Shown here: in pieces, positions 36,901 through 55,700 of the stretch
Numbering within the stretch: position 1 is the stretch's first letter
How the letters are laid out: each line of letters starts with the position of its first letter
Assembly: GCA_000091205.1 (NCBI GenBank)
Contig: AP006483.2
Length of the DNA: 64,000 nt
Direction: 5' to 3' (one strand)
Source: Cyanidioschyzon merolae
Lineage: Eukaryota
Position numbers and translations under genes: made by a program
Notes under the pieces: model-generated
Seen by the model: the letters and a program-made list of their open reading frames with translations, nothing else
Databases searched by the model: none
Told to the model about the DNA's origin: nothing

Positions 36901-38730
36901 GTGGAATGGATCGCCGAGTTCATCCAAAATGAAATGCCGCGCGGTGCTTCAGGCATTATCTACTGTTTTAGTAAGCAAGAGTGTGAGGATGTAGCGAAAG
37001 CATTGCGACGCCAGTTTCGCATCGCAGCGGAGCACTACCACGCTGGTCTCACGGACGAGAGTCGCATTGCGGTCCAGCAACGTTGGATGAGGCGGGCCAC
37101 GCAGGTCATTGTCGCCACCATTGCCTTTGGCATGGGCATCGATAAGCCGGATGTGCGCTTTGTCATTCACTACACCATGCCAAAGAATGTTGAGGGCTTC
37201 TATCAGGAAAGCGGGCGCGCTGGGCGCGACGGTCAGCCCGCCCGCTCTATTGTACTCTTCTCTCATGCGGATCAGCGGCGGCTGATCGGCATGATCGACA
37301 AGAACTCGAACGGTCTCACGAGAGCGGCGCTATCGCTTCAGAAAGACGCTGTCAAGAGAATGGCGGCCTGGTGTCTCGACGACGTCAGTTGCCGGCGCGT
37401 GACAGTGTTGGCTCACTTTGGCGAACGCTTCGATCGTCGAGCGTGCAGTCCGCCGTGCGATAACTGTCGGAACCAGGCTCCCTGTCAAATGGAAGACTGG
37501 ACGGCTACGGCCCGCGGTGCGTACCAACTGGCGCAATGGATGCAGGACGTGCGGCGGATAACGCCAACTTCGGCCAGGATCGCCTCTGGTCTGCGAGGTT
37601 TCGAATCCTTTCGTACTACCGTAGGCGCTTCACCGGACGTGGATATACCGGGTTTCGGGAGCGCCCCGCCTGGTGCCAACGACAATGACATCTTTCGTCT
37701 ACTCGCGGAGATGGAGCGACTGCACATTCTCCATGAAGAGGTCTACCACAACGAAGTGCACGGTGGCGTCTGCGGTTGTTTGCGTCCAGTACCGGGGAGC
37801 CAGTCTCCGATTGTGCACGATTTACTATACGGTAACGAACGGCGTATTTATCTGCTTGTTCGACGGGGCAAGCACGGCCTTCAGGCGATCCGGCTGCGTT
37901 CAGAGATGGTGCGCGCTACTTCAGGACGCAAGCGGGGCGTCGCATCTGCAACAGGTGCCACCGATGCCTTCCCAGAAGACACCAATGATTCGGTATCGAT
38001 CGGGAACACCACCAAGTCGCACGCAGAATCAGTTCGAAATCGTCTTCTGGAGCTCCGCCGAAGCTGGTGTAAGCAGCACAAGGGCCTGCGGGCAGACTCA
38101 GCCCTTTCGACAACAGAGATCGACAGCATTGTGCGTATAGCACCAAAGAGTTTGACAGAACTTGCAGCTCTACGGCGCCGTTCTCGTAATCCCGATCGCC
38201 AGGTCCCCGATGCCCTCGTTTGGCAAGCCATTCATGGCGACCAAAGCGACTCTGCTGTGATATCTGGCGACGGCATGTTGCCTCGCGACGCGCTGCCTGG
38301 CGCATCGAGTCGACATGCGCACCCAACTGCGAGTGCCAGCGCTCCCGGAGTACTGTTATCCGACGAGGATTCCATAGATTCCGGTGATGATGTAACAGTT
38401 GTTGGTGCTCGCTCTGCGTCCATCGACAGTCCAGCGAAGTCGGCGACGTGCATCCATCGGAAGAACGGGCAGCGTTCAACAGGGCGCCGCCAGAGTCATC
38501 GCACTGGTCACGCCCCGAAGGCGGCGCTGGCGCAGCGTACGGGGAAACGTCCCGCACGGGTCAATGAACGAGGACCCAGGTTGTCTCGGAGCCAGGAGTC
38601 GTGCCCCGTGGGCCGGTTTCAGCGCAGTGGCGGCCCCAGTCGCAGAAAGCCAAGTCGCACAGAGGCGCTCGCATCCAGCGACTACGGCAGTGCCGCCCCG
38701 TGGACTGGGAACGAGGCCATGCCCCTGTGA
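33919..38730 (+). CDS. RecQ-family ATP-dependent DNA helicase of BLM/Sgs1-like architecture. It has a long disordered N-terminus of about 770 aa, a DEAH helicase core, an RQC zinc-binding region and an HRDC-like tail
   Basis: 1603-aa ORF. Motif I is LMPTGGGKSLVYQLAA. Motif II is FVIDEAHCVSQWGHDFRPDY, the RecQ signature. Also present: TATATREVREDV, GIIYCFSKQECE, HAGL...RWMRRATQVIVATIAFGMGIDKPDVRFVIHYTMPKNVEGFYQESGRAGRDG, and the Cys cluster CRRVTVLAHFGERFDRRACSPPCDNC. Confidence 0.92.
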   Translation: MPLVPEFRVIFRCSSAVRTMEELRAYLRERRHAELFGFLNRHAGVDDAGNLVTVDAGGASRSTGGCAGTFPEALREPDSKTTARGGALQAESSGQLLNLDSEMKNRELESQRFQNSLSAAGTLPPDGGVSSPKARSVSERPAARLVRDPAQPYRGASQHGAHGVKNIPESLDPSQPDDNELWLVSELGASSNDERTVRSHDSVSEVPDPPAAKSRPDEGAFSMNLRPGSQTHMKALRASDVEWVCERRSLKRGPIAGSDSGDLVMNYDGTREHEASNATVAFPESTHGGTRSPVSGTSSDEDIFESILGENRQYTFSVPKRARIRCMELPDMDEILSSLREAEPVSAKCETDQRERSEASVCSGTSHCGSPKAAVSPIDGHRNVVKPLGDSTKSNVLPAEIDLRDQLPNSGAVPATPHAPTTFGGRTSFVSPYVAPKQQHPQRTASPESASMRSPGKAALPETKHSSTRVIPHATRHGESPSSPVVVCDTSSTLPRELNESSGTIASTDHRREGPGSDRPSAPEKMRSEPSALLLKKRQVALERLMRLEDEFLETIDAEQAERLHTLIEKTKSAIQHIDRCLGNDVATKKAASCIPNPDVDSQSQRMASLANAAALSASGARPSGTHDAENASPANPANSSSGESAFRCSASTKDVVTLTGLRSERYGSMAGASGAAPACVGKIGETSDRAVDAAEVHMAMTDHYHEEQPVSRLYDKSSVPVIEGSTGAPAVPVQMTTSDAVDLDEVFEAACAQASAEFAGDNYPWSAQLHHNNRVQFGNQGFRANQKEAINAAMCGRDVFVLMPTGGGKSLVYQLAATLTGPAGCGVTVVVSPLKSLIMDQVMRLQALRIPCGALCGATSETESRELMRDLRSLHPKTRILYVTPEKISLSEAFRSILDWLASRKLLARFVIDEAHCVSQWGHDFRPDYKRLSLCKQRYPSVPLMALTATATREVREDVKVQLGIPRCVTFKQSFNRPNISYEVYLKGPRSKTVEWIAEFIQNEMPRGASGIIYCFSKQECEDVAKALRRQFRIAAEHYHAGLTDESRIAVQQRWMRRATQVIVATIAFGMGIDKPDVRFVIHYTMPKNVEGFYQESGRAGRDGQPARSIVLFSHADQRRLIGMIDKNSNGLTRAALSLQKDAVKRMAAWCLDDVSCRRVTVLAHFGERFDRRACSPPCDNCRNQAPCQMEDWTATARGAYQLAQWMQDVRRITPTSARIASGLRGFESFRTTVGASPDVDIPGFGSAPPGANDNDIFRLLAEMERLHILHEEVYHNEVHGGVCGCLRPVPGSQSPIVHDLLYGNERRIYLLVRRGKHGLQAIRLRSEMVRATSGRKRGVASATGATDAFPEDTNDSVSIGNTTKSHAESVRNRLLELRRSWCKQHKGLRADSALSTTEIDSIVRIAPKSLTELAALRRRSRNPDRQVPDALVWQAIHGDQSDSAVISGDGMLPRDALPGASSRHAHPTASASAPGVLLSDEDSIDSGDDVTVVGARSASIDSPAKSATCIHRKNGQRSTGRRQSHRTGHAPKAALAQRTGKRPARVNERGPRLSRSQESCPVGRFQRSGGPSRRKPSRTEALASSDYGSAAPWTGNEAMPL

Positions 38731-40063
38731 GGTGCCAGTAGCTGTCCCTGCTCGGCGTACCGCGGTACGCCGATCCTCATCACCAGGCCTTTACAGTCGC
38801 TCGAAATGCAGGGTGCCTGGCGGGTGAGGCAGGTGCCTCGCAGCAACGTACCAGTTTGGTTGGCTTTTGTCGTGAGCCCGCCGAGGGACTGGGCTTGAGC
38901 GCTTAACCGACCGCAGGTGATGGCGTTGCGGACGCAGCGCAGCTGTGAAACCCGTACGCCACTGTAAACGCTACACCGTATCCGTGTCCCCGGAAAACAC
39001 TTGTGTGGTGTCTCTCGACCTGTGAGGCGTCCTCCAGCGGAACCGTGTTCTCAAACGGTTCGGCGTTGCGCATGGCGAACACGCTAGTGTCGCTCCAGTG
39101 GATGCAGCTGCGCGACAACGCGCTTCCAGAGCCGTTCGCGAAGCGTTACCCCCGTTTTTTATGAATGTGCAGTTTTCGTCTCACGAATAGACATGGGCAG
39201 CGAACTGAGAGCTTTCACGATATTCCGGCTTTCCGCTAGAGAGTTTCCTCGGAAACCTGCAGATAAATAATGCACCATCGAAACACCTTTCTTGAATCAG
39301 GGATCGTTTACACCCGTCAAGTTCCCCGATCGTGCACCAGCATTCACCAGCCAGGCAGCAGAGCATCCTCCAATCCCGAAGCAGACCTCCGAGTTCCAAG
39401 ATTGCCACTGCCACAACCGCCCCCCAGACTCGTATTCGAAGTCCATGGTCTGTTCATATGATCACTTGAGCGCCAACTGGCAGTGACGCGCACCCTTTTT
39501 CATGTCCGTAGCTCTGCACCAAACACATCACGGAAATAGAGTTGCTGCTGTATGCAATCTTCGAGGGCATGCTCTCAACGCATCTACGGCGGCGGATGTG
39601 CGTGTCGAATCGCCCGAGTGGACACGCAGGCGATCGTTCAGCGCTGTGACTGCCGAGCCCCGGTGCTCGCAATGACGAACAGCGCGTACAGTCGGGCATT
39701 CTAGTGTATGTCTCGATGTGCTGTGAAACGAACAGCACACCATTCCGCACAGGGCTTACCATCGTCGATTCTGGAGTTCGTGCAAACGCTCCGCGACACC
39801 AATGAATCATGGAATCCCGCGCCGGGCGTGCAGCAGGCGGCACGCATGGCTGCAGCGCTGCCCGCAACCGGCGATGCCGCTGATCGCGCCTCGAGGCAGC
39901 GGTGGCAGATCGCGCGAGCCGCCCGCCCTGCACAAACGTCGCCGCTCTGGCTGGCGCACGGGCCACTGGCGATAAACAATGCGAATTTTGCCGGCGACTA
40001 GAACTCCTGGTGTGTAGCGGCTGCGTTCGGTCCGCCCAGCTATCGCCGGAAACAGTGTTGAAC

Positions 40064-41602
40064 ATGACTCGAGGAAGGGTGACTCTTGAACTTTTGAAGG
40101 ATGAGAAAGCGAGAAATACGACTTTTTCGAAGCGGAAGAACGGATTATTTAAAAAAGTTCTGGAGCTGAGCGTGCTCTGCGACTGTGAGATCGGCATTGT
40201 GATTTTTAACCACAACGGGAAGCTAGTGGAGTACAGCAGCAAAGGTGAAGATAGTCTTGTTGACTTGATTAGACGATGGGGAGCGTACACAGGCACCGTT
40301 GAGTCGAAAAGCAACCTCACGGCACTGCAGCCTGCAGCTGGGCGCTACGAGCAGCTGTGTCCCCGCTGGAACGTGCACCCGGTGCGTTCGGAGGTCGAAC
40401 CTGCTCGCGTCGCTCGGAGCGAGGGTTCCCCACGAGCGCCTAGACTCAGGCCTCGTTATTCTTCGAAAAATAATGACGTGGTCAGCGCCGGTGAACCAGG
40501 CAACCAACCAGATTCACGTTCTTCGACACAGGACGTGCTTGTACCTAGTATGGCGAACGATGACCAGTTTGTTGAGTGTGAGTCTCTTAGAAAGATGTGT
40601 GCCGAGGCAGATATGATGCAGGACCTGCGGCGTCAGTATGAACGATATCGGGAACGGATCCTGCGTTGGTCGGGCAAGCGCCGGCGTGGTGCGCAGTCGA
40701 CCGAGCACACCACATGTAGCGGTAAACGCTGCCATATCGAGAGCGGGGACGATGACTCGTCGAGGTTCCCGTCTGCAGACCTGGTCGATTTGCTGAAAAG
40801 TGAAGATACCCGGCCTTCGGGGGCAGCAACGGAGGAAACTGGATCCCCAGCTTCCCGGAAGAAGCGCTTTCGGCCAGAGGCGCTGTCGATCGAGGTGGAT
40901 CCGCTGGGTATGGCCTTCAGCGGCGCGAATAATGAGAAACAATCGACTGGCACCTGGGATCAGACCGCTCTTCGACCGGGTTTCTTCGCGTCCGACGAGA
41001 CTTTACGCAACCAGACGCCATCGGTAACGTTTCCAGAAGCAAGCACCAGCGGCAGAGGACCGGTTCTTGAGGCACCGTTCTCCGGCCAATTGTATCCTTC
41101 GGCGGGCGTTGGGAGCCAGCTTTCACCGCGGCTCTCGTACCGCTCGCTTGTGTCGTCATATCCAATTCTGGTTCCATCACCTGCAGGATTGCCTTCTACA
41201 ACAGGCTTGGGCGTCCCTGGTGTGATGATACCCACACCAACTGGAGCCAGTACGAGGCATGTGCCTGGTTGCCCTCAGGGAGGCGCAGGCACTGGCGCCG
41301 CCACAGCCACCGGAACAGAAACCGGAGGACCGCCATCCCATCCGCGTACGCAGCCGGCGATGTTGAGTCCAACAGCGCTCATTTTCGAGCAAATGGGACT
41401 CGCTACTCCACGGGAGTCAGCCTCTTGGGGCGGCTACAATGGGACCTGGTTTTCGTTTGTTGGTACTGGTTCTACTCCGCGGATGGGCGCTTATATGGAG
41501 CGCGCCACTGGAACAGGAAATCAGAGCACCTCTCCGTCGCAACCATTCTCGGCATCCAACGATGCGGAAAAGAATGCTCTCGATAGCCCGGCTGGGACGT
41601 AG
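40064..41602 (+). CDS. MADS-box transcription factor of MEF2 type (type II). The C-terminal region is low-complexity and Ser/Pro/Gly/Thr-rich
   Basis: [59 protein letters not shown] matches the MEF2 MADS domain (..[40 protein letters not shown]). The ORF opens at 39902, but the first 54 aa are upstream of the canonical MADS N-terminus. Confidence 0.85.
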   Translation: [512 protein letters not shown]

Positions 41603-42289
41603 CACGCCCACATCGATGCAGCGTTGGATGGTGCTGTGTCTCTAACCGGGGCAAAGTGCGCCAGCGATGAGGCCGCTTCTCTGTGCTCGGAACTCAGTAT
41701 CCAGGGCTGCGACCCGGACGCGACGCCGTCTCACGCCACGAACTTGTTTCATTGATTTATGGAGCTCTGCAGCTCCGCTTTTGGACGTGTAGCGTGCAGG
41801 GGTCTCTCTCTGCAAGCCACTTTGAACCTTTTGCTTGCATTGGAAAGAATTTCCGAACGGATCGATGCATATGATCGTTCGATGGGATGATTAAGGCGCC
41901 TCAGGTGAATCCAGTGGAAGCCTGGTGCAGTGATTGCGTGGGAGGAGCCGACGCCCCCCGCTCCCCGCAGCCTCGCATATCCGCTGAATTCAATGCTTCT
42001 TTGCCCGATGTCAAGAAGATTGACCTGGGCTCTAATGCTTACCTCTGAGACCAAGCGCCTGCGCGACTGTGTGCCTGTGCATGAATGCATGCGTACCCCC
42101 AGTGCAGAAATGTCAGGCACCGAACCTTGCTCCAGTGGCAAGGCCTATGCCTTTTTTGGGGCACCCGATTGTCCCAGGGCAATGACCGAGATGAAGGCGA
42201 GTGCCCAAGTGAGCATCCTCGTCATCGCATGAAGTCGCTGAACACTTGCTCAGTGGGAGATTGTGCTCGCGTCCGTCTTCTATGCCGCT

Positions 42290-43655
42290 TACACTCGTGT
42301 ACGAATGGAATGGGACAGGTGCCCGATCAAGGCCGTATACGCGGTAAAGATTTGGTCTCTTTCCGTTGCCATCAACACCAGCGTTTCCGGGGGGGTTTCC
42401 TGTGACTCGTTTCGTCTGCTCCCTCGTACCTCGGGTTTTCAATGCACTGGTCGTTCCGGTCTCTCAAGCGCTATCGCTAGCAGTCAAGGATGTTGAGAGC
42501 GGCGTGAAGGTTCAGATCTCGCCGCTTCTCACTGTTATCGACACAGTTGGTATACCTGCGGTAGCTGCGATCTTCGCTTCGCATGCCGCTTTCATCTTGT
42601 CTATATACAGTCGCGGTATGCGCTTCGCAGCGGTGGCGCCTGGCCTGGTTCAGGCGCTCTGATACGTCGAGCAAGCCGCTTACTCCGCGAGCCGGCTGGT
42701 GGCTCGTGAACGCCTGCTTTATCGCTCGCTAGGCGCCCGGGACGCGTAGCGAAGAGTCCCGCTGATGCCCGCCTGCGATGCAGCGCCCGGTGGGGTACCT
42801 CTTGCGACCAGAAGCTTCTCGTGAGCGATCGCTTTCGAGCATGCACTGTTTGCTGCACAGGTAAGCGCGCGCGCTTCCATTCGGTAGAGCGTTTGTGGCA
42901 CGTGGTGTTGTTCCCGGTAAGCGAAAGCCGGACTCCTAGTCTAGGCAGGGGAACAAGCCGAGATACTCCGATCCGACTACACACGCCTCGTGCGAACCGG
43001 AGACGCGCTCTCCACGGGGAACCTTCGCTGCGCTGACCCGAATCCTGGTCCAAGACTCTTTGCGCTTCGAACGCGCAAGTCACGGGATCCTCGGTCAGCA
43101 TGCGCCATGCGAGGTATCATGCTGGTGTCGAATGGCAATTCGTTGAAGGGTCTAAGAATCAGAGGGCTTGCGCTTCGAGTGGAATCGATTATTAGGGAGA
43201 GGAATGCTCGGCGGACACTTGGCGTGAGCTCGTGAAAATGCCTGCAGAGGAGCGTGTCGAGTATTTTTCGGCACCAGTACAGCGGCAAGAAAGGCTGTGT
43301 CCAGTCGTTGCCTTGAAACAGGAAGAAGGGAAACGTGAGGCATGCTCTATGTGAGCGATCTACGCGCAAGCCAGTAGAAGAATCGAGGCCAATGCGCTTG
43401 TACTGTTCAATGATATTGGACGTTTGACGAACGCTTGCTCGAAAGCGCGGTGGACCATGCTGATTCAGGTACTGTGAAAAATTGCAGATGCACGGGGTCG
43501 AAAGAGGCACTCGGAAACCTCCGCCGCTAATCCTAGAAAACCGTTTGAATTTGTCGGGCGCAATTGTTGCACTCCGAATGCGGAGGCTGTACATCGGGAA
43601 GAAGATGTTTGGAAAACGTCGAAGGGCACGAACACAGCGAGCAGTTCAGTATTCC
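42290..43655. repeat. Left arm of a long inverted repeat (IR-L), about 1366 bp
   Basis: It is the reverse complement of 47003-48369 at about 99% identity. Identical ORF pairs are 42366..42662(+)=47997..48293(-) and 42977..43594(-)~47149..47682(+). Pair 42601..43101(-) vs 47558..48058(+) differs at one residue (K/E). Boundaries were set by nucleotide comparison at tacactcgt and attcc. Confidence 0.9.
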
Positions 43656-44457
43656 ATATGATTCGTCCACAGATGTAGGGAAGTGTTGCACGTGTCGCAG
43701 AAACAGCATGCACACCGTAGCATCGCCCACGGGTCAGCGTCTTCGTCGCCCTGGCACCGAACAACCCCGGCTCTCTTGATATGACAGAGGCAACCACGAA
43801 GGCATTTCATGACCGCCATTGCCACTGCGAGCGTACCAGTTGCAACCGCGACTATGCGCGTGTGCTTCGAGCGAGTCCGTCTAGGTCACCGCCGGCACGA
43901 TAGCTCTCAACGAGCTATTGTGCGGAAACCTCGTGGCAACGAGAAAAGCTCTGCCCTGAATTGTGTTTCGGCAGACACATTATTTTCCTCATTTATGTAT
44001 TTTTGTCTAGTCTCAATCATTTCCAAATGCAGGAAAGTAGACAGGTAGAAGTGTCGTCACTTCCAGTGCATATCACCTGGAGGAGTTCGCTCGACGCTGC
44101 GCGAATCAGTGAATGTGCTCGAGAGCACATGACTCCTTCATGTGACCATCTGCAATGCCGAGCGTGTCTCACGAACGTGTGTCCATTCGATGCCATGCAA
44201 CCCGGTGCGCCTGCACGTATTCTACATGAACCCGGCATTGCATGTTTTTCATTTTGAAATAGAAGCATCCACCTAGAAAACGAATCCTCATCTATGTCAG
44301 GAGAATAGTTCGGGAAACTAGCATTCTTTCTTATCAGCAAGCGATTTTGTCATGCTGCTTGGGATTCGGCTGGAACAAGGCACCGGCGACGACGCAGCAA
44401 TGCTGCTGGAAAACGGCCACCATAAAGATTTCCGTATAAACGGGAGCTCGGAGAAGC

Positions 44458-45639
44458 TTGAGGGGCGCGTCTCTGCAACTGTGCGGAACCATGGGAACGG
44501 ATGATAGCGATACCCTTACAAGTGACGTTCAGTATCAAAAGCCGCAATCAGCAGTGATTCCGAACGGTACAGAACCAGCTGACGCTGACACTCAACTCTC
44601 TGCCTCGTCGAAAGAGGAAGCACTATGGAGGGCGAACGTGTTACGGCCGAGCAGAGATCTGGAGCTACTGCGGAGCGCTCCTTCTGTACAGGGTCCCGAC
44701 TTTAACACAGTCAATAGTGCAGATGATGTGGTGAAATCCTTTGCAACGATAGGATTCCAGGCTACTCAGTTCGCACGCGCAGTTGACGTTGTTCAACAGA
44801 TGCTCCGTGACGAGCGCGGTTGTGTCATTTTTTTGGCGTACACTTCAAACCTCGTCAGTAGTGGTGTTCGTGACGTGATCCGGTACCTCGTGCAACACCG
44901 CATGGTCGACGTCCTTGTGACAACAGCAGGAGGTGTCGAGGAGGACCTCATCAAGGTTCTGGCTCCGACCCTCATCGGCGACTTTCGCTTGCCTGGGGCA
45001 TTGCTGCGAGAGAACGGCCTCAACAGGATAGGCAATTTGCTTGTACCCAATGCGAATTACTGTCTTTTTGAGGACTGGCTCATGCCACTGCTTGACAAGA
45101 TAGTTGATGAAAGACGAATATGGACGCCCAGCGAGTTCATCCATCGCCTCGGCCAGGAGATACAACACGAGTCGAGTATCGCCACCTGGGCTGCACGGAA
45201 CGGAGTGCCGTATTTCTGCCCAGCGATTACGGATGGCTCGCTCGGTGATATGCTCTTCTACCATACATATCGGAATGAAACTCCACTCATCCTAGACGTT
45301 GTCGGCGATATCCGGAAACTGAATCGACTCGCGATTCACGCCAAATGCACGGCGATGATCATCCTCGGTGGCGGTGTCGCAAAGCACCACACCTGCAACG
45401 CAAACTTAATGCGCAACGGAGCTGACTATGCCATCTACATTAATACTGGTCAAGAATATGACGGAAGCGACAGTGGTGCCGCTCCAGACGAGGCTGTGAG
45501 CTGGGGCAAAATCCGCGGCTCCGCTGAAGCGATCAAAGTTTTCGGTGATGCATCGATATTGTTTCCGCTCCTGGTATCACAGACGTTTTGCAAGGTGCCC
45601 AGGCAACATCGACCGGACTTTGATGAAATCTCGGGGTAG
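44458..45639 (+). CDS. DHPS: Deoxyhypusine synthase, the enzyme for eIF5A hypusination
   Basis: Long collinear match to recalled human DHPS: [38 protein letters not shown]..., [24 protein letters not shown]..., [12 protein letters not shown]..., [57 protein letters not shown]. The start may be the Met at 44491 (MGTDDSD). Confidence 0.92.
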
Positions 45640-47002
45640 TGGGCCTCGAAGGGTGTCCGTTTAGATCATGCAGGGTCAACGTGCACATCTGCGTCGCATG
45701 GGAATGCCGTGGAATGCGGCATGGATTGCGGGAACACCGGCCCTGTTCTCGCGCTTTGCACTATTCATGTCTTCGCATTGTCCTAGGAGCTACAATGCTA
45801 GGTTAGATTTTTTCGATCTTTACGAGAAAAACTCTGTCTCTGAAAGGCACGACGGCAGCATGGTTCGTGAAAGTGATGAATGCCGCAACGCAGCTCCGAT
45901 TTCCAGTCTAAAGCAGAGAGACCGGTGGAATCTGGTCCTGTCCACGGTGACTTTGTGCCAGTCAGTGCATAGTATTCACATCGACGCTTTCACAAACATG
46001 AAGGGCATCATTTTTGCTCGGTCTGGGTCATACCAATGACGCATTACGGAGCGCATCGCACTCTGCGTCAGCGTCGGAGCTGTACTTGGCTGCAGCGATT
46101 GATTGCCTCGTGACTCGCCTGGACTGGCTCCTGTTGCCACATTCGGTCTCAGTGGAAGATTCTCGGAACGCCCCAGGCGTTTTGTGTGTAGTGCGAGGTC
46201 CGGTTTGCCATGCGAGAGGACGTCTCGGAAGGAGACGCCTATGCGCAGCAGCTGCCCCAGGGTGATGCCGTTCTTAAGAATACCGTTGGGAGTTCTCGAC
46301 GCTGGCCCCAGCGTATTCGACTTCAAGCATCGTCAATTAGGCAGCATATGTGTGGCAGATGAGCATATACCCTGGAATGGAACTCGTTTTCAGCGACGTA
46401 CGATTGCGTATGGGGAGATGAGCACAACCGGACCCAGCCTGGTCGCGATCTAGAGTGCACTCGAAGTGTTCCAGCACAGCGGTTCACCAGCATGCTTGCG
46501 TTGGATAACCAGGCGATTGGAACTGTTCGTTAAACATGATGGACCATGTGTGCTATGGGTATTACAACCGTAAAAAGCGTCTGAGTTTCGAACCGAACCG
46601 GAGCGACCGCAGCTGTCAGGATCCCGTCCAAAAGTTGGCCGGATACGGCCCAAGGGAGAGCACCCCGCTGTGCTGCACATCCCACAAGCGGACACTCTTC
46701 AAAGGGCAGTGTAACCGGTGGGTCTATGGAGACTGACCGCGGTGGCGACGCACTCAACTTTGCAACGAGTGCGTATAGTAGGCCGTCCGGCCTCTGGCTT
46801 CTTGGACCATGCTTCTGTTCCTGGGAGAGCTCTCTCTGGGAGTTGGCGCAAAGCGATAGCATCTCGTGAATAGAAGTATTTCCATGCGTTATCGCAGCAA
46901 GCGCCCGTATATCTATGGATCCTGGTTAGCGTGTTGCACTCTGTTGGGATAAAAACTTCTCATACAACATGCAGGGCAAACTCTAGTCTTGTCGGATAGG
47001 GA

Positions 47003-48369
47003 CGGAATACTGAACTGCTCGCTGTGTTCGTGCCCTTCGACGTTTTCCAAACATCTTCTTCCCGACGTACAGCCTCCGCATTCGGAGTGCAACAATTGCG
47101 CCCGACAAATTCAAACGGATATCTAGGATTAGCGGCGGAGGTTTCCGAGTGCCTCTTTCGACCCCGTGCATCTGCAATTTTTCACAGTACCTGAATCAGC
47201 ATGGTCCACCGCGCTTTCGAGCAAGCGTTCGTCAAACGTCCAATATCATTGAACAGTACAAGCGCATTGGCCTCGATTCTTCTACTGGCTTGCGCGTAGA
47301 TCGCTCACATAGAGCATGCCTCACGTTTCCCTTCTTCCTGTTTCAAGGCAACGACTGGACACAGCCTTTCTTGCCGCTGTACTGGTGCCGAAAAATACTC
47401 GACACGCTCCTCTGCAGGCATTTTCACGAGCTCACGCCAAGTGTCCGCCGAGCATTCCTCTCCCTAATAATCGATTCCACTCGAAGCGCAAGCCCTCTGA
47501 TTCTTAGACCCTTCAACGAATTGCCATTCGACACCAGCATGATACCTCGCATGGCGCATGCTGACCGAGGATCCCGTGACTTGCGCGTTCGAAGCGCAAA
47601 GAGTCTTGGACCAGGATTCGGGTCAGCGCAGCGAAGGTTCCCCGTGGAGAGCGCGTCTCCGGTTCGCACGAGGCGTGTGTAGTCGGATCGGAGTATCTCG
47701 GCTTGTTCCCCTGCCTAGACTAGGAGTCCGGCTTTCGCTTACCGGGAACAACACCACGTGCCACAAACGCTCTACCGAATGGAAGCGCGCGCGCTTACCT
47801 GTGCAGCAAACAGTGCATGCTCGAAAGCGATCGCTCACGAGAAGCTTCTGGTCGCAAGAGGTACCCCACCGGGCGCTGCATCGCAGGCGGGCATCAGCGG
47901 GACTCTTCGCTACGCGTCCCGGGCGCCTAGCGAGCGATAAAGCAGGCGTTCACGAGCCACCAGCCGGCTCGCGGAGTGAGCGGCTTGCTCGACGTATCAG
48001 AGCGCCTGAACCAGGCCAGGCGCCACCGCTGCGAAGCGCATACCGCGACTGTATATAGACAAGATGAAAGCGGCATGCGAAGCGAAGATCGCAGCTACCG
48101 CAGGTATACCAACTGTGTCGATAACAGTGAGAAGCGGCGAGATCTGAACCTTTACGCCGCTCTCAACATCCTTGACTGCTAGCGATAGCGCTTGAGAGAC
48201 CGGAACGACCAGTGCATTGAAAACCCGAGGTACGAGGGAGCAGACGAAACGAGTCACAGGAAACCCCCCCGGAAACGCTGGTGTTGATGGCAACGGAAAG
48301 AGACCAAATCTTTACCGCGTATACGGCCTTGATCGGGCACCTGTCCCATTTCATTCGTACACGAGTGTA
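47003..48369. repeat. Right arm of the inverted repeat (IR-R), about 1367 bp
   Basis: See IR-L. The outer edge at 48369 lies only about 30 bp from the stop of the minus-strand 508-aa gene at 48399. Confidence 0.9.
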
Positions 48370-48398
48370 GCGCTGTACACCCGCGTATGCTCTCGTCA

Positions 48399-49925
48399 TT
48401 ATGCTCGCACGCGGTCCACGCGAGTAGGCTGTACAGTTCTCATGAAAGATTTCGGTAAAGCTTCCCGAATTCCAGGGACCGCAGGCGTTATGGCGTCAAA
48501 GAGAATCCCTTCGCGATGCGCAACAAGATACCCAGCGGCTTCTGCATAGCTGCGAACCCAGAGAACCCATGGCGCCTCATCTGAGGCCACGCGCTGGTGG
48601 CGAGTCAAAGCTCCATCATCGCGTACCTCTAGGACGTTCACGGGAAAGTCCCAGGGAGACCCATTCAGGCAGGTCGTGTTCTCTTTGACTGCAACGACAA
48701 GCTTGCCGCGTTGAAGCGTTGCCTGCACTGCGGGACTGCTTAAAGCATTGCTGGGCGTCACCAATGCCGCTACCTCATCTATCCAGAGTGCATATGTGCT
48801 CTTTTCGCGCTCTACTTCATCTTTCAAAATGAGGCGAGGCGCACGTGCTAAACCAGCAAGTACGCAGGGCAGGAAGGTATGGCCGAGTTCCTCTGCTGCG
48901 GCCTTGGGGTTGCAACGCTCGGCGCTGAAATGCAACTCGTTTAGCGCCGGCGCATGAGCGCAGGGTACTTTCAACGCCGTCGTAACCGTACGCGACAGTG
49001 CAGCCTCCGCGCCAGCAATGGGATCCACCCCCTTCCCTTGACGATATCGTTCGAGCATTTCTCCTGCGTTCGCGATCATATCTGGGGGAAAGTAGCAGAT
49101 AATTGCCAGCGCATCGCAGTTGTGGGGCGGTTCGAGTAAGCTCGCCGCCGCTTCAATGAGCGTCCCGGGAGCGTCCACCACGCCATAGCTGGATCCATCG
49201 TCGTGCAGGCCGCATCGGAACCTTACGGGTTCCCGCGTGACGGTATAGGCGGTTACCTGAATACCCAAGGTAGCCCGAGCGGCGTCACAGACCTGGAGGT
49301 GGCGCTCTAGGAGCGTCGACGGCACCGCTCTATCAAACACGACGCCAATCCGATTCGCAGTACCGCGCTGCGGCATGAGCCCCCAGAGGCCTTCACAGAA
49401 CCTATCCAGGGCGTATCCTTCAACGTAGAGCGCATTCGGAACCGCCCAGTAGAGCATGGCTCCGTTCAGTACGTTTGGATGGGTCACGAGCGTATCGCAG
49501 ACGCCCGCGAGTAGTCGACAGGCGGGTAACGCGTCACCGGCAAAGCCACCGATCCTAGCAGCGGTTCCGGTCGGCACGATCATGACGGCATTGTAACCGT
49601 CAAAGCTGCAGAGCAGACGGCGCGCTGTAGTGTCCCGGCACTGGCGGGGCGCGAGGCACCACGGTTGTTTGCTTTTCGGGGCAGCAACGAAGGCGTTTCG
49701 GTTGCTTTTTCCCGACCGAGACGACGCGAAATTGAGTGCGCTGCGAATACTAGCCACACCTGTTTGGACCGATAGTGCCCTTATTCTATGACAGCTCCCG
49801 ACGACGCCACAGTCACTACTCAATGACGCGTTCCAGCGTTCAGATCCAGCGAGAGATCGTACCCCGTTGTTCACGACTGCCGTCGAAACGAAGGCGCCCT
49901 GTCCCGCGGCAGCGAAACGTACCAT
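48399..49925 (-). CDS. Conserved hypothetical protein, possibly of the cyanobacterial/plastid-lineage DUF3326 type
   Basis: 508-aa ORF. The motif block AVMIVPTGTAARIGGFAGDALPACRLLAGVCDTLVTHPNVLNGAMLYW resembles the recalled DUF3326 signature (..IPTGIG..IGGYAGDA...HPNVMNGA.LYW). Confidence in the family assignment is low. Confidence 0.4.
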   Translation of the reverse strand: MVRFAAAGQGAFVSTAVVNNGVRSLAGSERWNASLSSDCGVVGSCHRIRALSVQTGVASIRSALNFASSRSGKSNRNAFVAAPKSKQPWCLAPRQCRDTTARRLLCSFDGYNAVMIVPTGTAARIGGFAGDALPACRLLAGVCDTLVTHPNVLNGAMLYWAVPNALYVEGYALDRFCEGLWGLMPQRGTANRIGVVFDRAVPSTLLERHLQVCDAARATLGIQVTAYTVTREPVRFRCGLHDDGSSYGVVDAPGTLIEAAASLLEPPHNCDALAIICYFPPDMIANAGEMLERYRQGKGVDPIAGAEAALSRTVTTALKVPCAHAPALNELHFSAERCNPKAAAEELGHTFLPCVLAGLARAPRLILKDEVEREKSTYALWIDEVAALVTPSNALSSPAVQATLQRGKLVVAVKENTTCLNGSPWDFPVNVLEVRDDGALTRHQRVASDEAPWVLWVRSYAEAAGYLVAHREGILFDAITPAVPGIREALPKSFMRTVQPTRVDRVRA

Positions 49926-52067
49926 AAGAGCCTGTGTCAGATTCTCAACGAGCAGCTCGTGCTAGCACAGCGAGCACCCGAACCCCACTAGATGAGACCA
50001 CTCGAGTGGCACTCTATCCACAAGGGACCCGGCTCTGAACGGAGAGCACCCAAACTCGATAACCAGATACAACTCCAAACCGACACAGTTGCAATGTAGA
50101 TGCATCTATCTCGCACCGATCGATGCGTCCGCGTTGTGCAATGCATCCCTGGGTATGTGTTTGTGTGTTTGTGTGCTCATCTGCAATGCCCGCATTTCAT
50201 GGGATACTGGATTTGGTCATCCTTTCCCGCTCAAAGCATCGAGTGCAAGCGGACATCAACACAGCTCTGTTGAAACGCTGCATCTGGTGCTGTTGGTGTA
50301 CCCATCATGCCGAATAACTCCGAATACAGTCATTATGTTCGGTGCTGCAACTGCAGTAGAGGCACTTGCAAACAGTATCTGTTTAAGAGTCAACTAGTTC
50401 GATTGGTGACCTCTTGAGGCAGCATCAGTCACAGAAGCAGGCAGAGAAGATATCCTGTTGGGAAGCGGGTGATCCGATTCGAGTCCGCTTCGCAGCGGCT
50501 GTCGTCTTTGGCATTGCACAGAACGCCGTGCCGTGCTGTGTTCCCACGCCGAGCAGTCTTAGCTTTCCCGTATTGGTAGGCAACAACAGATCGAAGCGCC
50601 GCGGTTACTACAGAAACTCGAGACGTGCTCTTCACTCGCATGCTCCAGTCAAAAAAAACATCTAGCTAGAGCGCCTTTCCGGTATTAAATCTGCTTGACA
50701 GCCACCGCATTCATTCCTGACCCGTGCTTATCGGGATGGATGCGCTGTGGTCGCCCGCAGCAACCTGCTTCCACACAGAACCTCAAGCTGTTCCCCAAAC
50801 CAACGGGATGAAGATCTCCTGCGGGAAAGCGCACATACTGGGACCCGGATCCGCATGGAATTTCCGGTTCGCTTCTTTGCGTCAAACGTTCACCACTTAC
50901 GACGAGAAGACATGGACTTGTTTTCAGTTATTCTTATCGCAAGCTGCGTCGCGATTTGCGGAGATCCCGGCGCGTGTACTATGGCCAACAGCTGCCAGAT
51001 CGGCAGCGGACTATCGGTATCCTGGCACACATTGCAGTCTCACTGCGAAAAGACTGCAAAAGACGGATTGCTCAAGTGGAGAAGAACGCTGCCACCGAGG
51101 TCGCGAACTTGTTGGACCCAGTCAATGCCGGCCTTCTCCAGCCAGGCTCTACCGCAAAAGTAGATACGCCGACTTTGCCACTGATCGCATGGGTACAGAC
51201 GATCAAGAATACCGCCTCGCGTCGTTTCGAGCACCCGTTTGCCTCCTCGTGTCTCGATAACAGGGGTCCGCCGCAGAGCGAACTCACAGAGTGCCCTGCG
51301 GACCACTTGGTGCAACTCATACGGGAACGAAAGATACCCGGTGGGGTAGTAGATGACCAAGCGTTGTGCCTCAGCTGGTCCTCCGGCTCGTTTTGAGTTC
51401 ACAGAGGAGGAAGCCTTTCGCTTCTTCGCCATAACTGCACTATACGCGTGCAACTCTGAGTCGTGTGGTTAGACGTTGGACCAGCAAGTCCGTTCCAGCA
51501 AGCCAAGGCGAGGTCTACGCAAAGGAAGACGTGCTTCGCGCTTTCCGAGCCCCTTGGCGACCTATTGGGCTCCAAGAGTTGCGTGCCTTGCGCGATCAGT
51601 TTCCGGAGAGAGCGCGTCCAAGTCGCCCGGCCCCAGAGGAGAACACTTCGCAAACACCTGCTTCGCGAAACCACACACCCTGGTAACCAGGAAGGAAGCG
51701 CGCCCCTTGTACGTGCAACCTTGGAGCAGTGCGCCCCAGCCAGCTCGCAGTCCTATTCGTCACGTTTCCTCAAAGAACAGTGACCTGTGAAACACGTTCC
51801 TCCCTTGAAAAGGCTCCGAATCCTCCAAGTCGGCTGAGACTGCTACGTTTACCGCAACCCGCAAAATAGCTCAACGCTTTCGTAGCGCAGGCAATGCGCT
51901 GAATCGTCCGCCTCAGGTCGTCAAGGACGCCTCACTTGGATGCCAGTAACTAGGATGGCATCGAGGATTTCCGGGGCCTGGCGGCGACCCTGGGCCGAAA
52001 CATATCTGGCTCTGTTCTGAGCAGCTTTCGTTGAACAGTGCGCCCGCTGAACAGTCATAGTTGGAGG

Positions 52068-52736
52068 ATGCTTTCTTTTTTGGACTGGGGATCGAGCTTC
52101 CGCTCGAAAAAAGTGTCCTCCAAGGATCAAAATGATAACGCCGGTTGGCCGCCGAGCTTTCCACAGTCGCAGCTGACTTCGTTGCTGGGTACGGCTCCCG
52201 CACGCGAACGACTGCGCTCGTTGCTGCTGGAACGACAGCAGCTCCAGCTGGCTATTCGCCTTCCGGAAAGTGAAAGCGTCGACGATTGGATCGTTTTACA
52301 CTGTATCGACTTTTTGAACTTGCTGAATCTTCTCTACGGAATGGTCTACGTGCACGCTTGCACACCGAATACGTGTCCACGAATGACCGCAGGACCGGCA
52401 TACGAGTTTCTCTGGCAGCGCTCGGACAAGCGGACAATGGAGCGCTTGCCGGCCTCCAAGTATATTGAACTTGTGCTTTCCTGGGCAGAAGAGGAGCTTC
52501 GGCGCCTGATGGCGGGCAGCGCAAACCGCAAGAGCTGCCACAAGCTGGCACAGCGTTTCCATCGGATATTCGCCCATCTCTACCATCACCATTTAGCAGA
52601 CTTGCTTGATATGGACGCTATCGCCCATTTGAATACATCATATCTTCATTTCTATTTTTTTATCAAAGAGTTCGACCTCGTGGGCAGCAAGGAATTGGAG
52701 CCTATGCGAGCGTTGACTGAATGCTTGCTGGCGTAA
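52068..52736 (+). CDS. MOB1: MOB kinase activator (Mob1/phocein family)
   Basis: DWIVLHCIDFLNLLNLLYGMVYVHACTPNTCPRMTAGPAYEFLWQ...KYIELVLSWAEEEL...RIFAHLYHHHLADLLDMDAIAHLNTSYLHFYFFIKEFDLVGSKELEPM matches the Mob1 core ([45 protein letters not shown]...KYIDYLMTWVQDQL...RVYAHIYHQHFDSVMQLQEEAHLNTSFKHFIFFVQEFNLIDRRELAPL). The ORF opens at 52038; the Met at 52068 (MLSFLDWGSS) fits the Mob N-terminus. Confidence 0.88.
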   Translation: MLSFLDWGSSFRSKKVSSKDQNDNAGWPPSFPQSQLTSLLGTAPARERLRSLLLERQQLQLAIRLPESESVDDWIVLHCIDFLNLLNLLYGMVYVHACTPNTCPRMTAGPAYEFLWQRSDKRTMERLPASKYIELVLSWAEEELRRLMAGSANRKSCHKLAQRFHRIFAHLYHHHLADLLDMDAIAHLNTSYLHFYFFIKEFDLVGSKELEPMRALTECLLA

Positions 52737-55700
52737 ACCTCGTACCTAATGGAATCGGAGCTGAACCATTCTGCTATCTGGAAGCGTACGTGACGCCAAT
52801 AAGCGCTTTGCTTTGAAAACAAATACAAATCAGTATACGAGCCTCCTGGAAAACTTGTTTTTTGAATTCGGTCGGATTGGCGGAAGCAGGATTGACGGAT
52901 ACCTGGCTCGGCGGAAGCGCTACGTCCGTGCGCTCTGCGCGTTGCGTGTACTCAGTAGTAGTATCGAAGAACAGAGCACCATTTTTGTTCACCAATCACT
53001 CAGGAAATCTGTTACCCGTGTACATAGATGGCGCGTCAGACTTACTGGATTGACGAAGCGTACCAAAGCGCAGCCTAGCTCGAGGCGGGAATCTCATGCT
53101 CTCCCGCCTATCCACTGATTCTTTTTCATCGAAAATCCGTAACGTCTCTGCACGATACCCGCATTGACTAGTGGACGATTCCAATAAAATTTCGCTCGAC
53201 GCAAACCCGCGACACGCTCCCGATGCATGAAGCATTCCAAGATATCGATCATGGCATCGAAGACTTGGCGCGAAGAACGGGTTTCCGCGCATAGTTGCTG
53301 GTGGAATCACACCAAAGCAAGCCGCTTATCTTCGAATGACTCGGGATCTGACGTCGGGTCAGCGTAGCACATACCACCTCGTAGATGCGGATCTGCTTCA
53401 CGCACTTCTTCTGTGTCTGGTTCACCGTGCAACGCTGCTCGTGACGCGTATACTTTGTCCAAAAGTCATCCATGGGGAAAGTATAGAAGCCATTCCTGGA
53501 CTCGATGTATGCATTCGTTCAGGGAGCAAGCATGCGGCATCTCCGCGGAACAGAATGTCCAGCGTCATAGGCCAGAACCGAGTTACGCGGCTTCTCAGGC
53601 ATTTGCTTTCCAAACTCATTGAAGAAGCTCGCAAATGCACGCGTCTTGGATCGGTGCAACCATACCCGTTGGCGAGCACAGCGAGGTCCGGTACACTCCT
53701 GCCGAAAATCGTTTGAATGAGCCAATTGAACGCTAATGTGCTCTGCGGATACAGCGTCGAAAACATCCCGTTCTATTCGAAAACGTGTTGAGAGAGCGTC
53801 AAGATAGGTCCTGATGCCGTCCTTCTCCGAGCGGGAATGGCTGCTGACGCCGAGCATGCTCGAGTCGCTAAGACCCGGAGCCATGGACAAGTTGAGCAGC
53901 TTCCGTGACATTCCATTCAAAAGCTCCGGGAATGCCGTCTTGATTCGGTAGCGTGGTGACGGCCGAGGTGTTGTTACGCCCGCGATCCACGCCCAACACG
54001 ACATGTTTATCTTTATGTACCTTGAACGGTTGAAAAGGGTTGCGTTGCCGGGCTCATGTCGAGCTCTCCCTAGTTTCAGTAAGTGCATACTCATTGACAA
54101 GTCCTCTTTCTACATGGTTCCTGTGAATTGCTTTCCATTGGCCCCGTGTTAACGAGAACGCTCGATGAGCCCCGCCAGTGCACTTCGCAAAGTCGTTCGA
54201 TTGCTTCGTTGTTGCTCGCAGAGCCCAGCGATAGCTCACCGTTCAGGCCATCGTGGACAATACTCCAGCGTTTATGATGCTAGACTGGGACTTGCTTTGG
54301 CATAAAGAGACTACATCGACCTGAAGCGCATGGGGGCAATGTCGCTCGCATTCGCAGAATGATGCCGCTCTGCCCTGAGCGACTCTGTTCAGGAGCGCGT
54401 ACCGGCACAATACGCAAGCACATCGGGCATTACGTTCGAATCATGCTTTGGATACGACATTGGTCGGCCCGAGTCCGGGCGCAACCCGAAGGGTTTCCAG
54501 CATCTTACGCGACGCCTGCTCTCTCTGTGTGATATCGCTTCGGAGTACGCGAACATCACGAGCTCTTCCACATCAGCATCAACACCACCAGCACCTCGCT
54601 GGCCGCCTTCGACATCCCAAGATTCCCTTGCTTCAGTTCCGAGTTTTCGGGCAAGAATGGCGTGCGTACACCGGCCACAGCCTGTGCTTCATGAAGCGCT
54701 TGACATTGACCCTGCATCTGAGTTTTGAGATTGGTCGTCTACTCGCTGGCACAAGCGCTGTCGACTTTTCTCGATCCCCAGAGTGGGCACGGCAGGCCAG
54801 CAGGGCGCGCTGGCAAGCTGGTTTAGCACCTTTCTGATCCAATGGTCAGGCTATGCTGCATCTTGGGTGCCCGGGGCATCAAGTACGTTGGCACACGAGG
54901 GTTCCATTGAAAAATTCCAGAGCATTGTAGGCACCTAGCTGGATTGCGTGCAGATTCCCCACGAACCGTTGCTTGACGAGCAGCGTGCATGCGAGTGGAG
55001 CTCGGCGAGTGCCCGTCTACAGCGAAGCTTTAGGATCCCTAATGACTTGGTGCACCGTTCTTTGTGGAAGATGCTCATCGAAGATCTGTTCGAGTCGCGA
55101 GGCCTTGGCAACGGTTCCAGATTGATCGGGTCGCTTCGACACTTTTTTCATTCCTGTCCGACCTGATCTTCTTTGGTGAGGATATTTCCATTCCGTTTTT
55201 CGTGTTGTGGTACTTCCTCTCGTCCACAGCGCTGCATAGCATAGATATGGACGCCACATGCCATCGTTTTCATTTCCGGGACTCAGATGCACTGGCTGGA
55301 CAATGAGACCCCAAATCGCATGCTCTACGTATGCCTATTCTATTCCTCAGGTGCATTGTCGTCATCGGCTTTGGTACGAGCACGCTCAGCGACCGAGGCG
55401 AGCCATTCTGGTTCCTCGCACTCACGACTGGACAAGCAATACTGCAGTTCAGGGCTGGGAAAGACCGAAAGCGATTTATCGAGGAACGTCATGTCGCAGA
55501 TGCGAACGACTTGTCCATGAATCCATCATCGTGAAAATGGCGTACAGCATCATATAAAACGCTTCCGAATGCATACGATAAGAAACGCAAGTTGCGACAA
55601 AGAGCAGCTGAACGCCAATCTCGGTTGCGTACTCCTGGACGACTTTTGAGTATTGAAAAGCAAACTTATCTGAAAGCTGGTCACATGAATGCGGTAACGA

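Follow-up and report, generated by a model that had tools for sequence, protein, structure and literature searches.

A natural inverted repeat around the deoxyhypusine synthase gene of Cyanidioschyzon merolae and its probable recombination

Results

The deoxyhypusine synthase gene lies between two nearly identical inverted arms

The window analyzed here is a 64-kb stretch of chromosome 1 of Cyanidioschyzon merolae 10D, a species valued as having the simplest, least redundant genome of any free-living eukaryote. Within it, the deoxyhypusine synthase (DHS) gene CMA098C (44491-45639, plus strand) encodes a 382-aa protein that exactly matches its 10D entry (BAM78799.1) and the corresponding Pfam family (PF01916, E = 7e-118). 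Its left neighbor is the MADS gene CMA095C (40064-41602, plus strand; PF00319), which shows diploid-specific expression (PMC13353863), and its right neighbor is the DUF3326 gene CMA099C (48399-49925, minus strand; 508 aa; PF11805), both likewise assigned by their 10D protein matches and locus tags. Two inverted arms separate DHS from these neighbors: a left arm on the MADS side, upstream of DHS in 10D (42290-43655, plus strand), and a right arm on the DUF3326 side, downstream of DHS in 10D (47004-48369, minus strand). As originally predicted, the neighboring genes end at 41602 and 48399, leaving 688 bp between the 3′ end of the MADS gene and the left arm, and 29 bp (~30 bp had been claimed) between the stop codon of the DUF3326 gene and the right arm.

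Each arm is 1366 nt long, and the two align without gaps and with 6 mismatches (left-arm coordinates 42308, 42506, 42681, 43538, 43540 and 43593), i.e., at 99.56% identity, in agreement with the claim of ~1.37-kb inverted repeats that are ~99% identical. The repeat and the spacer had thus been located properly, although the right-arm start (47003) and the spacer length (3347 bp) were both off by one: the unique spacer, a putative invertible cassette, spans 43656-47003 (3348 bp) and consists of 835 bp of upstream DNA, DHS and 1364 bp of downstream DNA. One metagenome contig (L012) corresponds exactly to this spacer. The arm borders are sharp, with no similarity detected past them in an ungapped comparison or in gapped local alignments evaluated against shuffled sequences (p = 0.09-0.85). 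No other comparable inverted repeat was found in the window, the next best being 92 nt at 74% identity. Long, highly identical inverted arms around a unique spacer, as seen here, are the features by which palindromes maintained by conversion are recognized.

In line with the claim that DHS is the sole recognizable gene of the spacer, a Pfam search with the ORFs of the 6.1-kb unit (the arms and the spacer) yielded no match other than DHS, and searches of the unit for RNA genes yielded no tRNA and no Rfam match, even at E ≤ 1. The locus is not the mating-type locus, which maps to CMK076C-CMK078C on chromosome 11. No paper describing the CMA095C-CMA099C inverted-repeat locus was found in the literature searched.

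The inverted repeat occurs in independent assemblies of wild relatives

All four arm junctions, i.e., MADS flank to arm, DUF3326 flank to arm, arm to 5′ spacer and arm to 3′ spacer, are present in independent metagenome and SRA assemblies, across ~35 independent hot-spring metagenome contigs of ~99% relatives. Many of these contigs end precisely at 42290, 43655/43656, 47003/47004 or 48369, as expected when an assembler meets a two-copy inverted repeat. The probability that the repeat is an assembly artefact, the real genome having one arm only, is practically nil: nothing was found in support of it, and it is refuted by the metagenome contigs, since independent assemblies from more than 15 samples hold both arm/flank and both arm/spacer junctions, and arm sequence stands on both sides of DHS within single contigs (L005, L006, L008, L009, L018 and L027-L029). 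Thus, of the options initially raised for this unit, the assembly artefact falls away, and the palindrome exists naturally in the nuclear genome.

The arms are non-coding copies from an old dispersed family

The arms belong to an old dispersed repeat family, designated 'X', of which they are non-coding members and the only young pair. Three more copies lie in the window: copy A (3-1182, plus strand; ~56% identical to the arms), which is cut by the window start, copy B (16990-18475, plus strand; ~53%), which contains an internal 77-bp tandem duplication, and copy C (29377-30881, minus strand; ~54%), which is part of a composite repeat at 29377-32648. Homology of the left arm to them was detected by nhmmer at E = 2e-37, 7e-43 and 1e-67, respectively. 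It had been considered that the arms might be two independent insertions of a high-copy transposable element; they are indeed part of a dispersed family, but its other copies are only 53-58% identical to them. The arms are hence not simply two separate insertions of an active element, and either a local duplication or mutual conversion over a long time must account for the pair. The composite repeat measures 3.27 kb, and parts of it recur at 1514-2121, 23289-23584 and 52947-55021; its ORFs have no Pfam, PDB or database homologs. An ORF beside copy C (30628-31161, minus strand) with the motif RDFNAAINIRR provided a TnpB/Fanzor lead, which was dropped as it drew no support from Pfam, PDB or 5.8 billion proteins. 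The GC content of the arms is 56.1%, compared to 50-54% in the other family copies, an excess too weak to be interpreted as GC-biased conversion.

The family homology does not end where the arms end, the arm borders being internal to it. Copy B continues to align past the right-arm border, with matches at 15 of the 23 positions of the outer flank (48370-48392; anchored shuffle p = 0.001). The left-arm flanks, by contrast, show no family homology, and the left arm therefore looks like an internal copy that was cut short and unlike an element that transposed. Tests of family homology at the inner flanks gave p values of 0.06-0.2. Judging by these flanks, the right arm is possibly the parental copy.

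The arm ORFs had been described as identical or different at single residues. This is the case for a 98-aa ORF, which is the same in both arms, and for a 166-aa ORF, which differs by one residue, but not for the 205-aa ORF of the left arm, which is only 177 aa long in the right arm. As coding features, the ORFs were rejected altogether: in addition to the right-arm shortening, many wild strains have lost 2 bp (window 43072-43076), which shifts the frame of both the 205-aa and the 166-aa ORF, the 98-aa ORF lacks an ATG start codon and is interrupted by a poly-G indel, and the codon log-odds of the two long ORFs are ~0. The arm ORFs have no Pfam match, their sole database relatives are the same ORF at the same locus, and no viral relative was found in IMG/VR.

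The DHS cassette is inverted in 10D relative to outgroups

In Cyanidiococcus yangmingshanensis (L034) and a second relative (L013), the locus reads DUF3326(+), DHS(+), MADS(-), RecQ(-) and has no inverted repeat. Lying between the DUF3326 and MADS genes in Cyanidiococcus too, DHS is at its ancestral syntenic position in 10D. A Cyanidium-like locus (L017) likewise has DHS(+) convergent with MADS(-). When the window was compared with these three loci, all flanking genes aligned in reverse and DHS alone aligned forward. Given that DHS is oppositely oriented among the same neighbors in the outgroups, gene order indicates that the DHS cassette is inverted in 10D, with breakpoints in the arms; the flip that had been envisaged for this segment is thus seen as a 10D orientation opposite to that conserved in three outgroup genomes. 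No homolog of the arms was detected in L013, L017, L033 or L034 by blastn, six-frame tblastn or the family HMM, because intergenic sequence can no longer be aligned, even when the two Cyanidiococcus-like genomes are compared with each other. Galdieria shows no synteny.

Arm differences follow lineage and not side

Full-length arms differ at 4-10 positions within a 10D-like group, at 2-5 within a 'type B' group and at 12-22 between the groups, regardless of side, a comparison weakened by the fact that metagenome arms may be a collapsed consensus of both arms. The phased inner 170-270 nt are exempt from this concern: in two contigs (L028 and L029), side-specific SNPs at arm positions 1262 and 1332 phase the inner ends of the two arms, and type-B alleles are still shared by both ends at 1200, 1239, 1269 and 1272, positions at which both 10D arms carry the other allele. 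Within 10D, all differences between the arms fall within 392 nt of the outer end or 118 nt of the inner end, the two zones being 857 nt apart (p = 0.013). Taken together, the clustering of arms by lineage and the location of the differences at arm ends point to arm-to-arm gene conversion as the process that keeps the arms alike; ongoing conversion was one of two options originally raised, next to a very recent inverted duplication. Such conversion is not frequent, since the divergence between the 10D arms (0.44%) is more than half of the genome divergence between 10D and Yellowstone strains (0.71%, PMC13353863).

Both cassette orientations are found among assembled contigs

The orientation of the cassette in 10D is taken from the published Sanger/BAC assembly. 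In wild assemblies, seven contigs from seven samples (L005, L018, L027, L038, L045, L046 and L047) have the arms together with the ancestral orientation, and only L001, an independent 46-kb metagenome contig, has the 10D orientation; this count of 7:1 derives from short reads that are unable to phase 1.37 kb, may reflect assembler heuristics and comes from related samples. These contigs suggest that both DHS orientations coexist in nature, with Yellowstone wild relatives probably having mostly the ancestral one. Arm SNPs did not suffice to phase the orientation in wild strains, whose arms carry few side-specific markers or none, and no fixed ones, between about arm positions 217 and 1195, and whose alleles at the outer sites are polymorphic on both sides.

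Discussion

The reading that we favor, with a probability of about 60%, is that the repeat pair recombines, conversion homogenizing the arms and crossover inverting the DHS cassette. One arm would probably be a truncated duplicate of the other, the pair straddling the DHS gene. Homologous recombination is highly efficient in C. merolae, and recombination between intrachromosomal repeats is routinely used in these algae (PMC13353863); being 1.37 kb long and 3.3 kb apart in such a host, the arms would be expected to recombine with each other. Non-crossover recombination, i.e., gene conversion, would hold them ~99.6% identical by concerted evolution, and crossover between them would invert the 3.35-kb cassette, which 10D carries opposite to the ancestral orientation kept in Cyanidiococcus and Cyanidium. 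Because a flip would carry the DHS promoter and terminator regions along with the gene and would leave each cassette end facing unchanged arm sequence, it is most likely neutral to selection and a side effect of having the repeat pair, as opposed to a device. That the pair instead constitutes a recombination-driven switch kept polymorphic in nature, with isomers that differ in fitness or life-cycle stage, is very unlikely. Were this so, a flip would decide which neighbor DHS is transcribed towards, DUF3326 or the diploid-specific MADS-box gene CMA095C, altering transcriptional interference or 3′-end formation at the neighboring genes, and the locus would be a eukaryotic nuclear analog of a bacterial invertible segment.

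The 10D structure could conceivably have another origin, namely a single staggered-break inversion (the isochromatid/chromatid model of Ranz et al. 2007), which we regard as possible, if doubtful. According to this model, DHS was inverted and the second arm made at once, when a 1366-nt overhang was filled in at the breakpoint on the DUF3326 side, with no later flipping; gene conversion may still act afterwards, and the metagenome contigs with the ancestral orientation would be assembly artefacts. Starting from the outgroup order, the model predicts DUF3326 - arm - inverted (3′ spacer, DHS, 5′ spacer) - arm′ - MADS, as in 10D, with the parental arm next to DUF3326, the side on which family homology continues past the arm border. 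Moreover, 1366 nt is within the range of Drosophila duplications (46 bp-1.9 kb), among which duplication of a single breakpoint is common (PMC1885836), and no further young arm copy was found in any contig examined. However, the duplicated segment begins and ends within ~0-50 bp of where one repeat unit does, a coincidence that is unlikely for random staggered nicks, the evidence for a parental right arm is short and statistically modest, and the model alone cannot yield seven assemblies, from seven samples, that combine the arms with the ancestral orientation. These same contigs bear on an explanation that we consider unlikely, whereby the orientation in the 10D reference is a wrong assembly choice, all C. 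merolae are ancestral, and all that happened at the locus is that a repeat copy was duplicated in inverted orientation, the cassette itself never having been inverted. DHS is convergent with MADS in 7 of the 8 arm-crossing metagenome contigs and in all 3 outgroups, and the 857 nt of 10D arm without arm-specific SNPs exceed a typical Sanger read, meaning that the 10D orientation call depended on mate pairs. Yet a 1.4-kb repeat is normally resolved by plasmid and BAC mate pairs, the genome was finished telomere-to-telomere on a clone-by-clone basis and is stated to be 100% complete (PMC1955436), and the independent contig L001 agrees with the reference orientation.

The original prediction further raised the option of a foldback-type or TIR-type element that captured DHS; such a composite element, or two recent independent insertions of an active transposon, appears extremely unlikely. 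The arms do have at least three more family copies in 64 kb, and a 'novel interspersed repetitive element' with 253 copies (mean 3.2 kb) and a truncated ORF weakly similar to the WSSV protein WSV486 has been reported in C. merolae (Nozaki et al. 2007, PMC1955436). Nevertheless, DHS is at its ancestral position, with the neighbors it has in Cyanidiococcus, and the unit is single-copy: all ~35 contigs with an arm 26-mer or arm ORF map solely to this locus, and no second locus with an arm 26-mer or arm ORF cluster was found among all contigs retrieved. The low identity of the other family copies shows no sign of recent activity, the arm borders do not coincide with the ends of the family homology, and neither a transposase, a Pfam match nor a viral relative accompanies the arms. 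The sequences abutting the arms (...TATGCCGCT before one and GCGCTGTAC... after the other) contain no clean direct repeat that would represent a target-site duplication, only a GCGC-type overlap.

Structural variation of C. merolae in the literature searched is chromosome-scale only, consisting of an inversion and a translocation that distinguish 10D from MS1 (PMC13353863). The locus described here is a compact, fully sequenced, kilobase-scale inverted repeat with concerted evolution and an associated gene-sized inversion. Its host is haploid, transformable and efficient in homologous recombination, and has a newly discovered sexual cycle, so that rates of conversion and flipping are directly measurable. 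On the practical side, knock-ins, primers and read mapping around CMA095C-CMA099C should take into account a 1.37-kb inverted duplicate and a DHS orientation that may vary among strains. The finding leaves general principles as they are.

Several known systems resemble this locus in part. The family itself, judging solely by the published description of the C. merolae interspersed element, is similar to the latter in being dispersed, intergenic and either non-coding or endowed with degenerate ORFs, in having several copies within 64 kb, and in size (~3.2 kb compared to the ~3.3-kb composite with copy C), although the arms are just a 1.37-kb module. Recurrent inversions mediated by NAHR between inverted segmental duplications or transposon copies (the ectopic-exchange model) share with our locus the inverted family copies at both breakpoints and efficient recombination; here, however, the pair is not made of ordinary family members. 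In staggered-break inversions (Ranz et al. 2007, PLoS Biol, PMC1885836), as in 10D, a segment inverted relative to outgroups is bounded by an inverted breakpoint duplication of non-coding DNA, and the size of 1.37 kb is within the reported range; an origin of the arms from a single breakpoint is modestly supported. Of note, one such event would give exactly the 10D structure without arm-to-arm recombination. The Drosophila duplicates were ancestrally unique and then decayed (~88% identity), whereas the arms described here are members of a dispersed family, 99.6% identical and concerted, and may coexist with the un-inverted orientation. The human Y-chromosome palindromes P1-P8 (PMC8600007) and the flip-flop inverted repeats of plastids likewise have long arms of >99% identity around a unique spacer, arms that are closer within a genome than between lineages, differences located at arm edges and an expected inversion of the spacer by arm crossover. 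They differ in size, with arms of 9 kb to 1.45 Mb compared to 1.4 kb here, and in content, as the arms of C. merolae are gene-free and its spacer holds a single-copy housekeeping gene; equimolar isomers are a feature seen in plastids.

An inverted repeat encloses the DHS gene

The inverted repeat proposed around the deoxyhypusine synthase (DHS) gene was confirmed, with the correction that its right arm begins at 47004, not 47003. The left arm (42290-43655, on the MADS side) and the right arm (47004-48369, on the DUF3326 side) are 1366 nt each and differ by six mismatches (at 42308, 42506, 42681, 43538, 43540 and 43593, in left-arm coordinates) and zero indels, i.e., they are 99.56% identical across a 3348-bp spacer. 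The arms end sharply: similarity past their borders was found neither without gaps nor in local alignments with gaps tested against shuffles, and the runner-up inverted repeat within the 64 kb measures 92 nt at 74% identity. The spacer carries DHS (44491-45639; PF01916, E 7e-118 in Pfam). Pfam also confirmed the MADS gene, whose 3' end is at 41602, and the DUF3326 gene (48399-49925), whose 3' end at 48399 lies 29 bp from the arm; the unit is otherwise without a Pfam, Rfam or tRNA-model match. All three encoded proteins match the Cyanidioschyzon merolae 10D entries BAM78798-BAM78800 exactly; their locus tags are CMA095C (MADS), CMA098C (DHS) and CMA099C (DUF3326). The MADS gene is reported to be diploid-specific and tied to the transition from haploid to diploid in Cyanidiophyceae (PMC13353863). 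The C. merolae genome is finished telomere-to-telomere, and the genome paper mentions neither inverted repeats nor palindromes (PMC1955436); our literature search found no paper describing the CMA095C-CMA099C repeat locus.

Of note, the open frame of the MADS gene (39902-41602) extends 54 codons 5' of the annotated start, and metagenome gene callers take the longer form. Likewise, the 10D annotation gives DUF3326 508 aa, vs 568 aa in the calls from most metagenome contigs (L005, L022 and others), and the actual start codon may be upstream of the annotated one.

The ORFs within the arms did not hold up as real genes. The 205-aa ORF is just 177 aa in the right arm, and a 2-bp CG deletion (43072-43076), present in many wild strains, shifts the frame of both this and the 166-aa ORF. 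The 98-aa ORF has no ATG and contains a poly-G length polymorphism, and database searches with the 205-aa ORF brought up 43 near-identical calls from this locus and nothing else. The arms are non-coding. The length-polymorphic runs, poly-G at 42373-42379 (arm positions about 100-106) and CGCGC at 43072-43076, vary by 1-2 bp and are the sole arm indels seen among wild strains.

The palindrome occurs in natural populations

Exact-protein look-ups and one k-mer scan of JGI, ENA and Logan hot-spring metagenome assemblies yielded ~35 contigs from relatives 98.5-99.8% identical to the window; a '10D-like' Cyanidioschyzon is known to dominate Lemonade Creek in Yellowstone (PMC11662350). All four arm junction types were found among the contigs mapped to the window, and arm sequence flanks DHS on both sides in L005, L006, L008, L009, L018 and L027-L029. 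Contig ends coincide with the arm borders: L012 is exactly 43656-47003, L007 starts at 42290, L006, L028 and L041 end at 48369, L039 and L042 start at 47004, and L043 is an arm alone. Many ends at exact borders, together with the presence of all junctions, are what a real inverted repeat with two copies would be expected to leave. These contigs support a natural palindrome and speak against an assembly artefact, both of which the original prediction had entertained. An arm-less junction was seen in none of the mapped contigs, indicating that the arm pair is fixed in the sampled populations.

DHS alone is inverted relative to outgroups

In Cyanidiococcus yangmingshanensis (L034, GCA_026122185.1) DHS also lies between MADS and DUF3326, without arms, in the order Mob1(-), small ORF(+), DUF3326(+), DHS(+), MADS(-), RecQ(-). 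A second relative (L013-L016; GCA_041825655.1 and metagenomes), with a DHS 78% identical, has the same order, and in a Cyanidium caldarium-like contig (L017, assigned via its cluster mate) DHS(+) is convergent with MADS(-). When the window was aligned to the outgroup loci, DHS ran forward and every flanking gene in reverse, meaning that DHS alone was flipped; in 10D it is convergent with DUF3326 and co-directional with MADS. The proposed inversion of the DHS segment is therefore supported, as only DHS is reversed relative to the L034, L013 and L017 loci. One breakpoint of the inversion must fall between MADS and DHS and the other between DHS and DUF3326, and each of these intergenic regions contains one arm. 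The inverted repeat was absent from all outgroup loci examined; in Galdieria, synteny was not found at this locus.

More broadly, gene order across 34000-53000 is conserved with L034 and L013 (RecQ helicase, MADS, DHS, DUF3326, a small ORF at about 51092-51353, Mob1), DHS being the sole strand difference. Despite this conserved order, intergenic DNA is unalignable between Cyanidioschyzon and Cyanidiococcus.

The arms belong to an old dispersed repeat family

Sensitive searches revealed homology of nearly the full arm to three further intergenic regions within the window: copy A (3-1182; arm match 7-1158, plus strand, E 5e-19 and 2e-37), copy B (16990-18475; arm match 17083-18471, plus strand, E 7e-43 and 1e-22) and copy C (29377-30881; arm match 30745-29422, minus strand, E 1e-67). 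Pairwise identity among the arms and these copies is 53-58%, vs 99.6% between the arms. Copy C sits in a composite of 3.27 kb. The other modules of this composite are found again at 1514-2121, 23289-23584 and 52947-55021, and further family modules lie at 30715-31333 and 31616-32648. Module order varies, the arm-like module preceding module Z in copy A and following it in copy C. The family is modular, dispersed, intergenic and apparently non-coding, with copies 53-77% identical, and was not detected in the outgroup loci. Matched by description alone, the family probably corresponds to an interspersed repetitive element of C. merolae with 253 copies (Nozaki et al. 2007). The family is old, and recent activity was not seen in the data at hand.

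Copies B and C contain tandem duplications (77 bp x2 at 17844-17997, 100% identity; 69 bp x2 at 29907-30044, 97%), which are recent local events inside ancient elements. Other intergenic tandem repeats, both outside ORFs of at least 250 aa, lie at 60810-61243 (144 bp x3, 98-100%) and 8220-8489 (135 bp x2, 92-93%). GC content is 56.1% in the arms vs 50.2-53.9% in copies A, B and C, which could reflect GC-biased gene conversion or merely local context. Beside copy C, a 177-aa ORF found once in the window (30628-31161, minus strand) contains 'RDFNAAINIRR', resembling the RuvC-III motif (D-x-N-A-A-x-N-I) of TnpB/Fanzor; Pfam, PDB sequences and a large protein database gave this assignment no support.

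Origin of the second arm

The arms could be two ordinary insertions, or parts of a transposon that captured DHS, as had been suggested. However, the family is old and shows no recent activity in these data, and in every contig retrieved a 26-nt arm k-mer and the arm ORF were confined to this locus; we thus rejected the former, and the latter was not borne out. Family homology also extends past the arm borders (A-C by 45-49 bp beyond the inner border, B-C by 17 bp). The 23 nt just outside the right arm match copy B at 15/23 positions (anchored shuffle p=0.001), and the left-arm flanks match nothing (p 0.16-0.89). This difference modestly suggests that the DUF3326-side copy is the parental, longer element, of which the left arm is a truncated internal duplicate. 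On the other hand, each end of the arm sits some 0-50 bp from an end of the repeat unit, a position that would follow more readily from a homology block set by the unit itself. Candidate origins of the second arm are a staggered-break inversion like those in Drosophila (PMC1885836), a different local duplication, or an ancient pair of insertions that conversion has kept similar.

Probable gene conversion and possible cassette flipping

Ten full-length arm sequences, of which those from metagenomes might be collapsed, fell into a 10D-like group (4-10 differences within) and a 'type B' group (2-5 within), with 12-22 differences between groups, independently of the side of DHS. For instance, 3 sites separate the 5'-side arm of L005 from its 3'-side counterparts in L027 and L029, vs 18 sites that separate it from the 5'-side arm of 10D. 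As full-length metagenome arms might be collapsed, L028 and L029 provide cleaner evidence: here both inner arm ends are attached to spacers and distinguished by side-specific SNPs (arm positions 1262 and 1332), and both ends carry type-B alleles at 1200, 1239, 1269 and 1272, four sites at which the alternative allele is present on both 10D arms. Lineage-specific changes common to both arms require copying between them after the lineages split. Grouping by lineage and the phased inner ends thus support the proposed gene conversion. The six 10D differences all fall within the outer 392 or the inner 118 nt, and a central stretch of 857 nt has none (p=0.013); this pattern would be expected if the arm centre were renewed by conversion tracts more often than the edges. 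With 0.44% divergence between the 10D arms vs 0.71% between the genomes of 10D and the Yellowstone strain MS1 (PMC13353863), conversion appears occasional, not rapid.

Eight contigs span a whole arm, joining flank to spacer end. Seven of them, from seven samples, combine arms with the ancestral orientation, through either a DUF3326-arm-5'DHS junction (L005, L018) or a 3'DHS-arm-MADS junction (L027, L038, L045, L046, L047); the eighth, the 46-kb L001, has the 10D orientation. Provided these assemblies are correct, the species has both isomers and at least one inversion occurred by arm-arm crossover, whichever state came first. Yet the samples are related, and between about positions 217 and 1195 side-specific markers are scarce or absent in wild arms, so short-read assemblers cannot truly phase across them, and from these contigs we estimate a probability of roughly 0.6 that both orientations really occur in the species. 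Crossover between arms is mechanistically plausible, since homologous recombination is efficient in these algae and intrachromosomal repeat recombination is used for marker excision (PMC13353863).

The cassette takes in 835 bp upstream and 1364 bp downstream of DHS, and each of its ends meets the same arm sequence in either orientation. We found no indication of a functional role for the repeat and cassette structure, and a mating-type region is ruled out (PMC13353863). The structure is regarded as a neutral by-product of the repeat pair, and a regulatory switch is highly improbable. Its value lies chiefly in offering a tractable model locus and in cautioning those who work around CMA095C-CMA099C. 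Taken together, the locus belongs with inversions bounded by inverted duplications and with palindromes that undergo arm-to-arm conversion.
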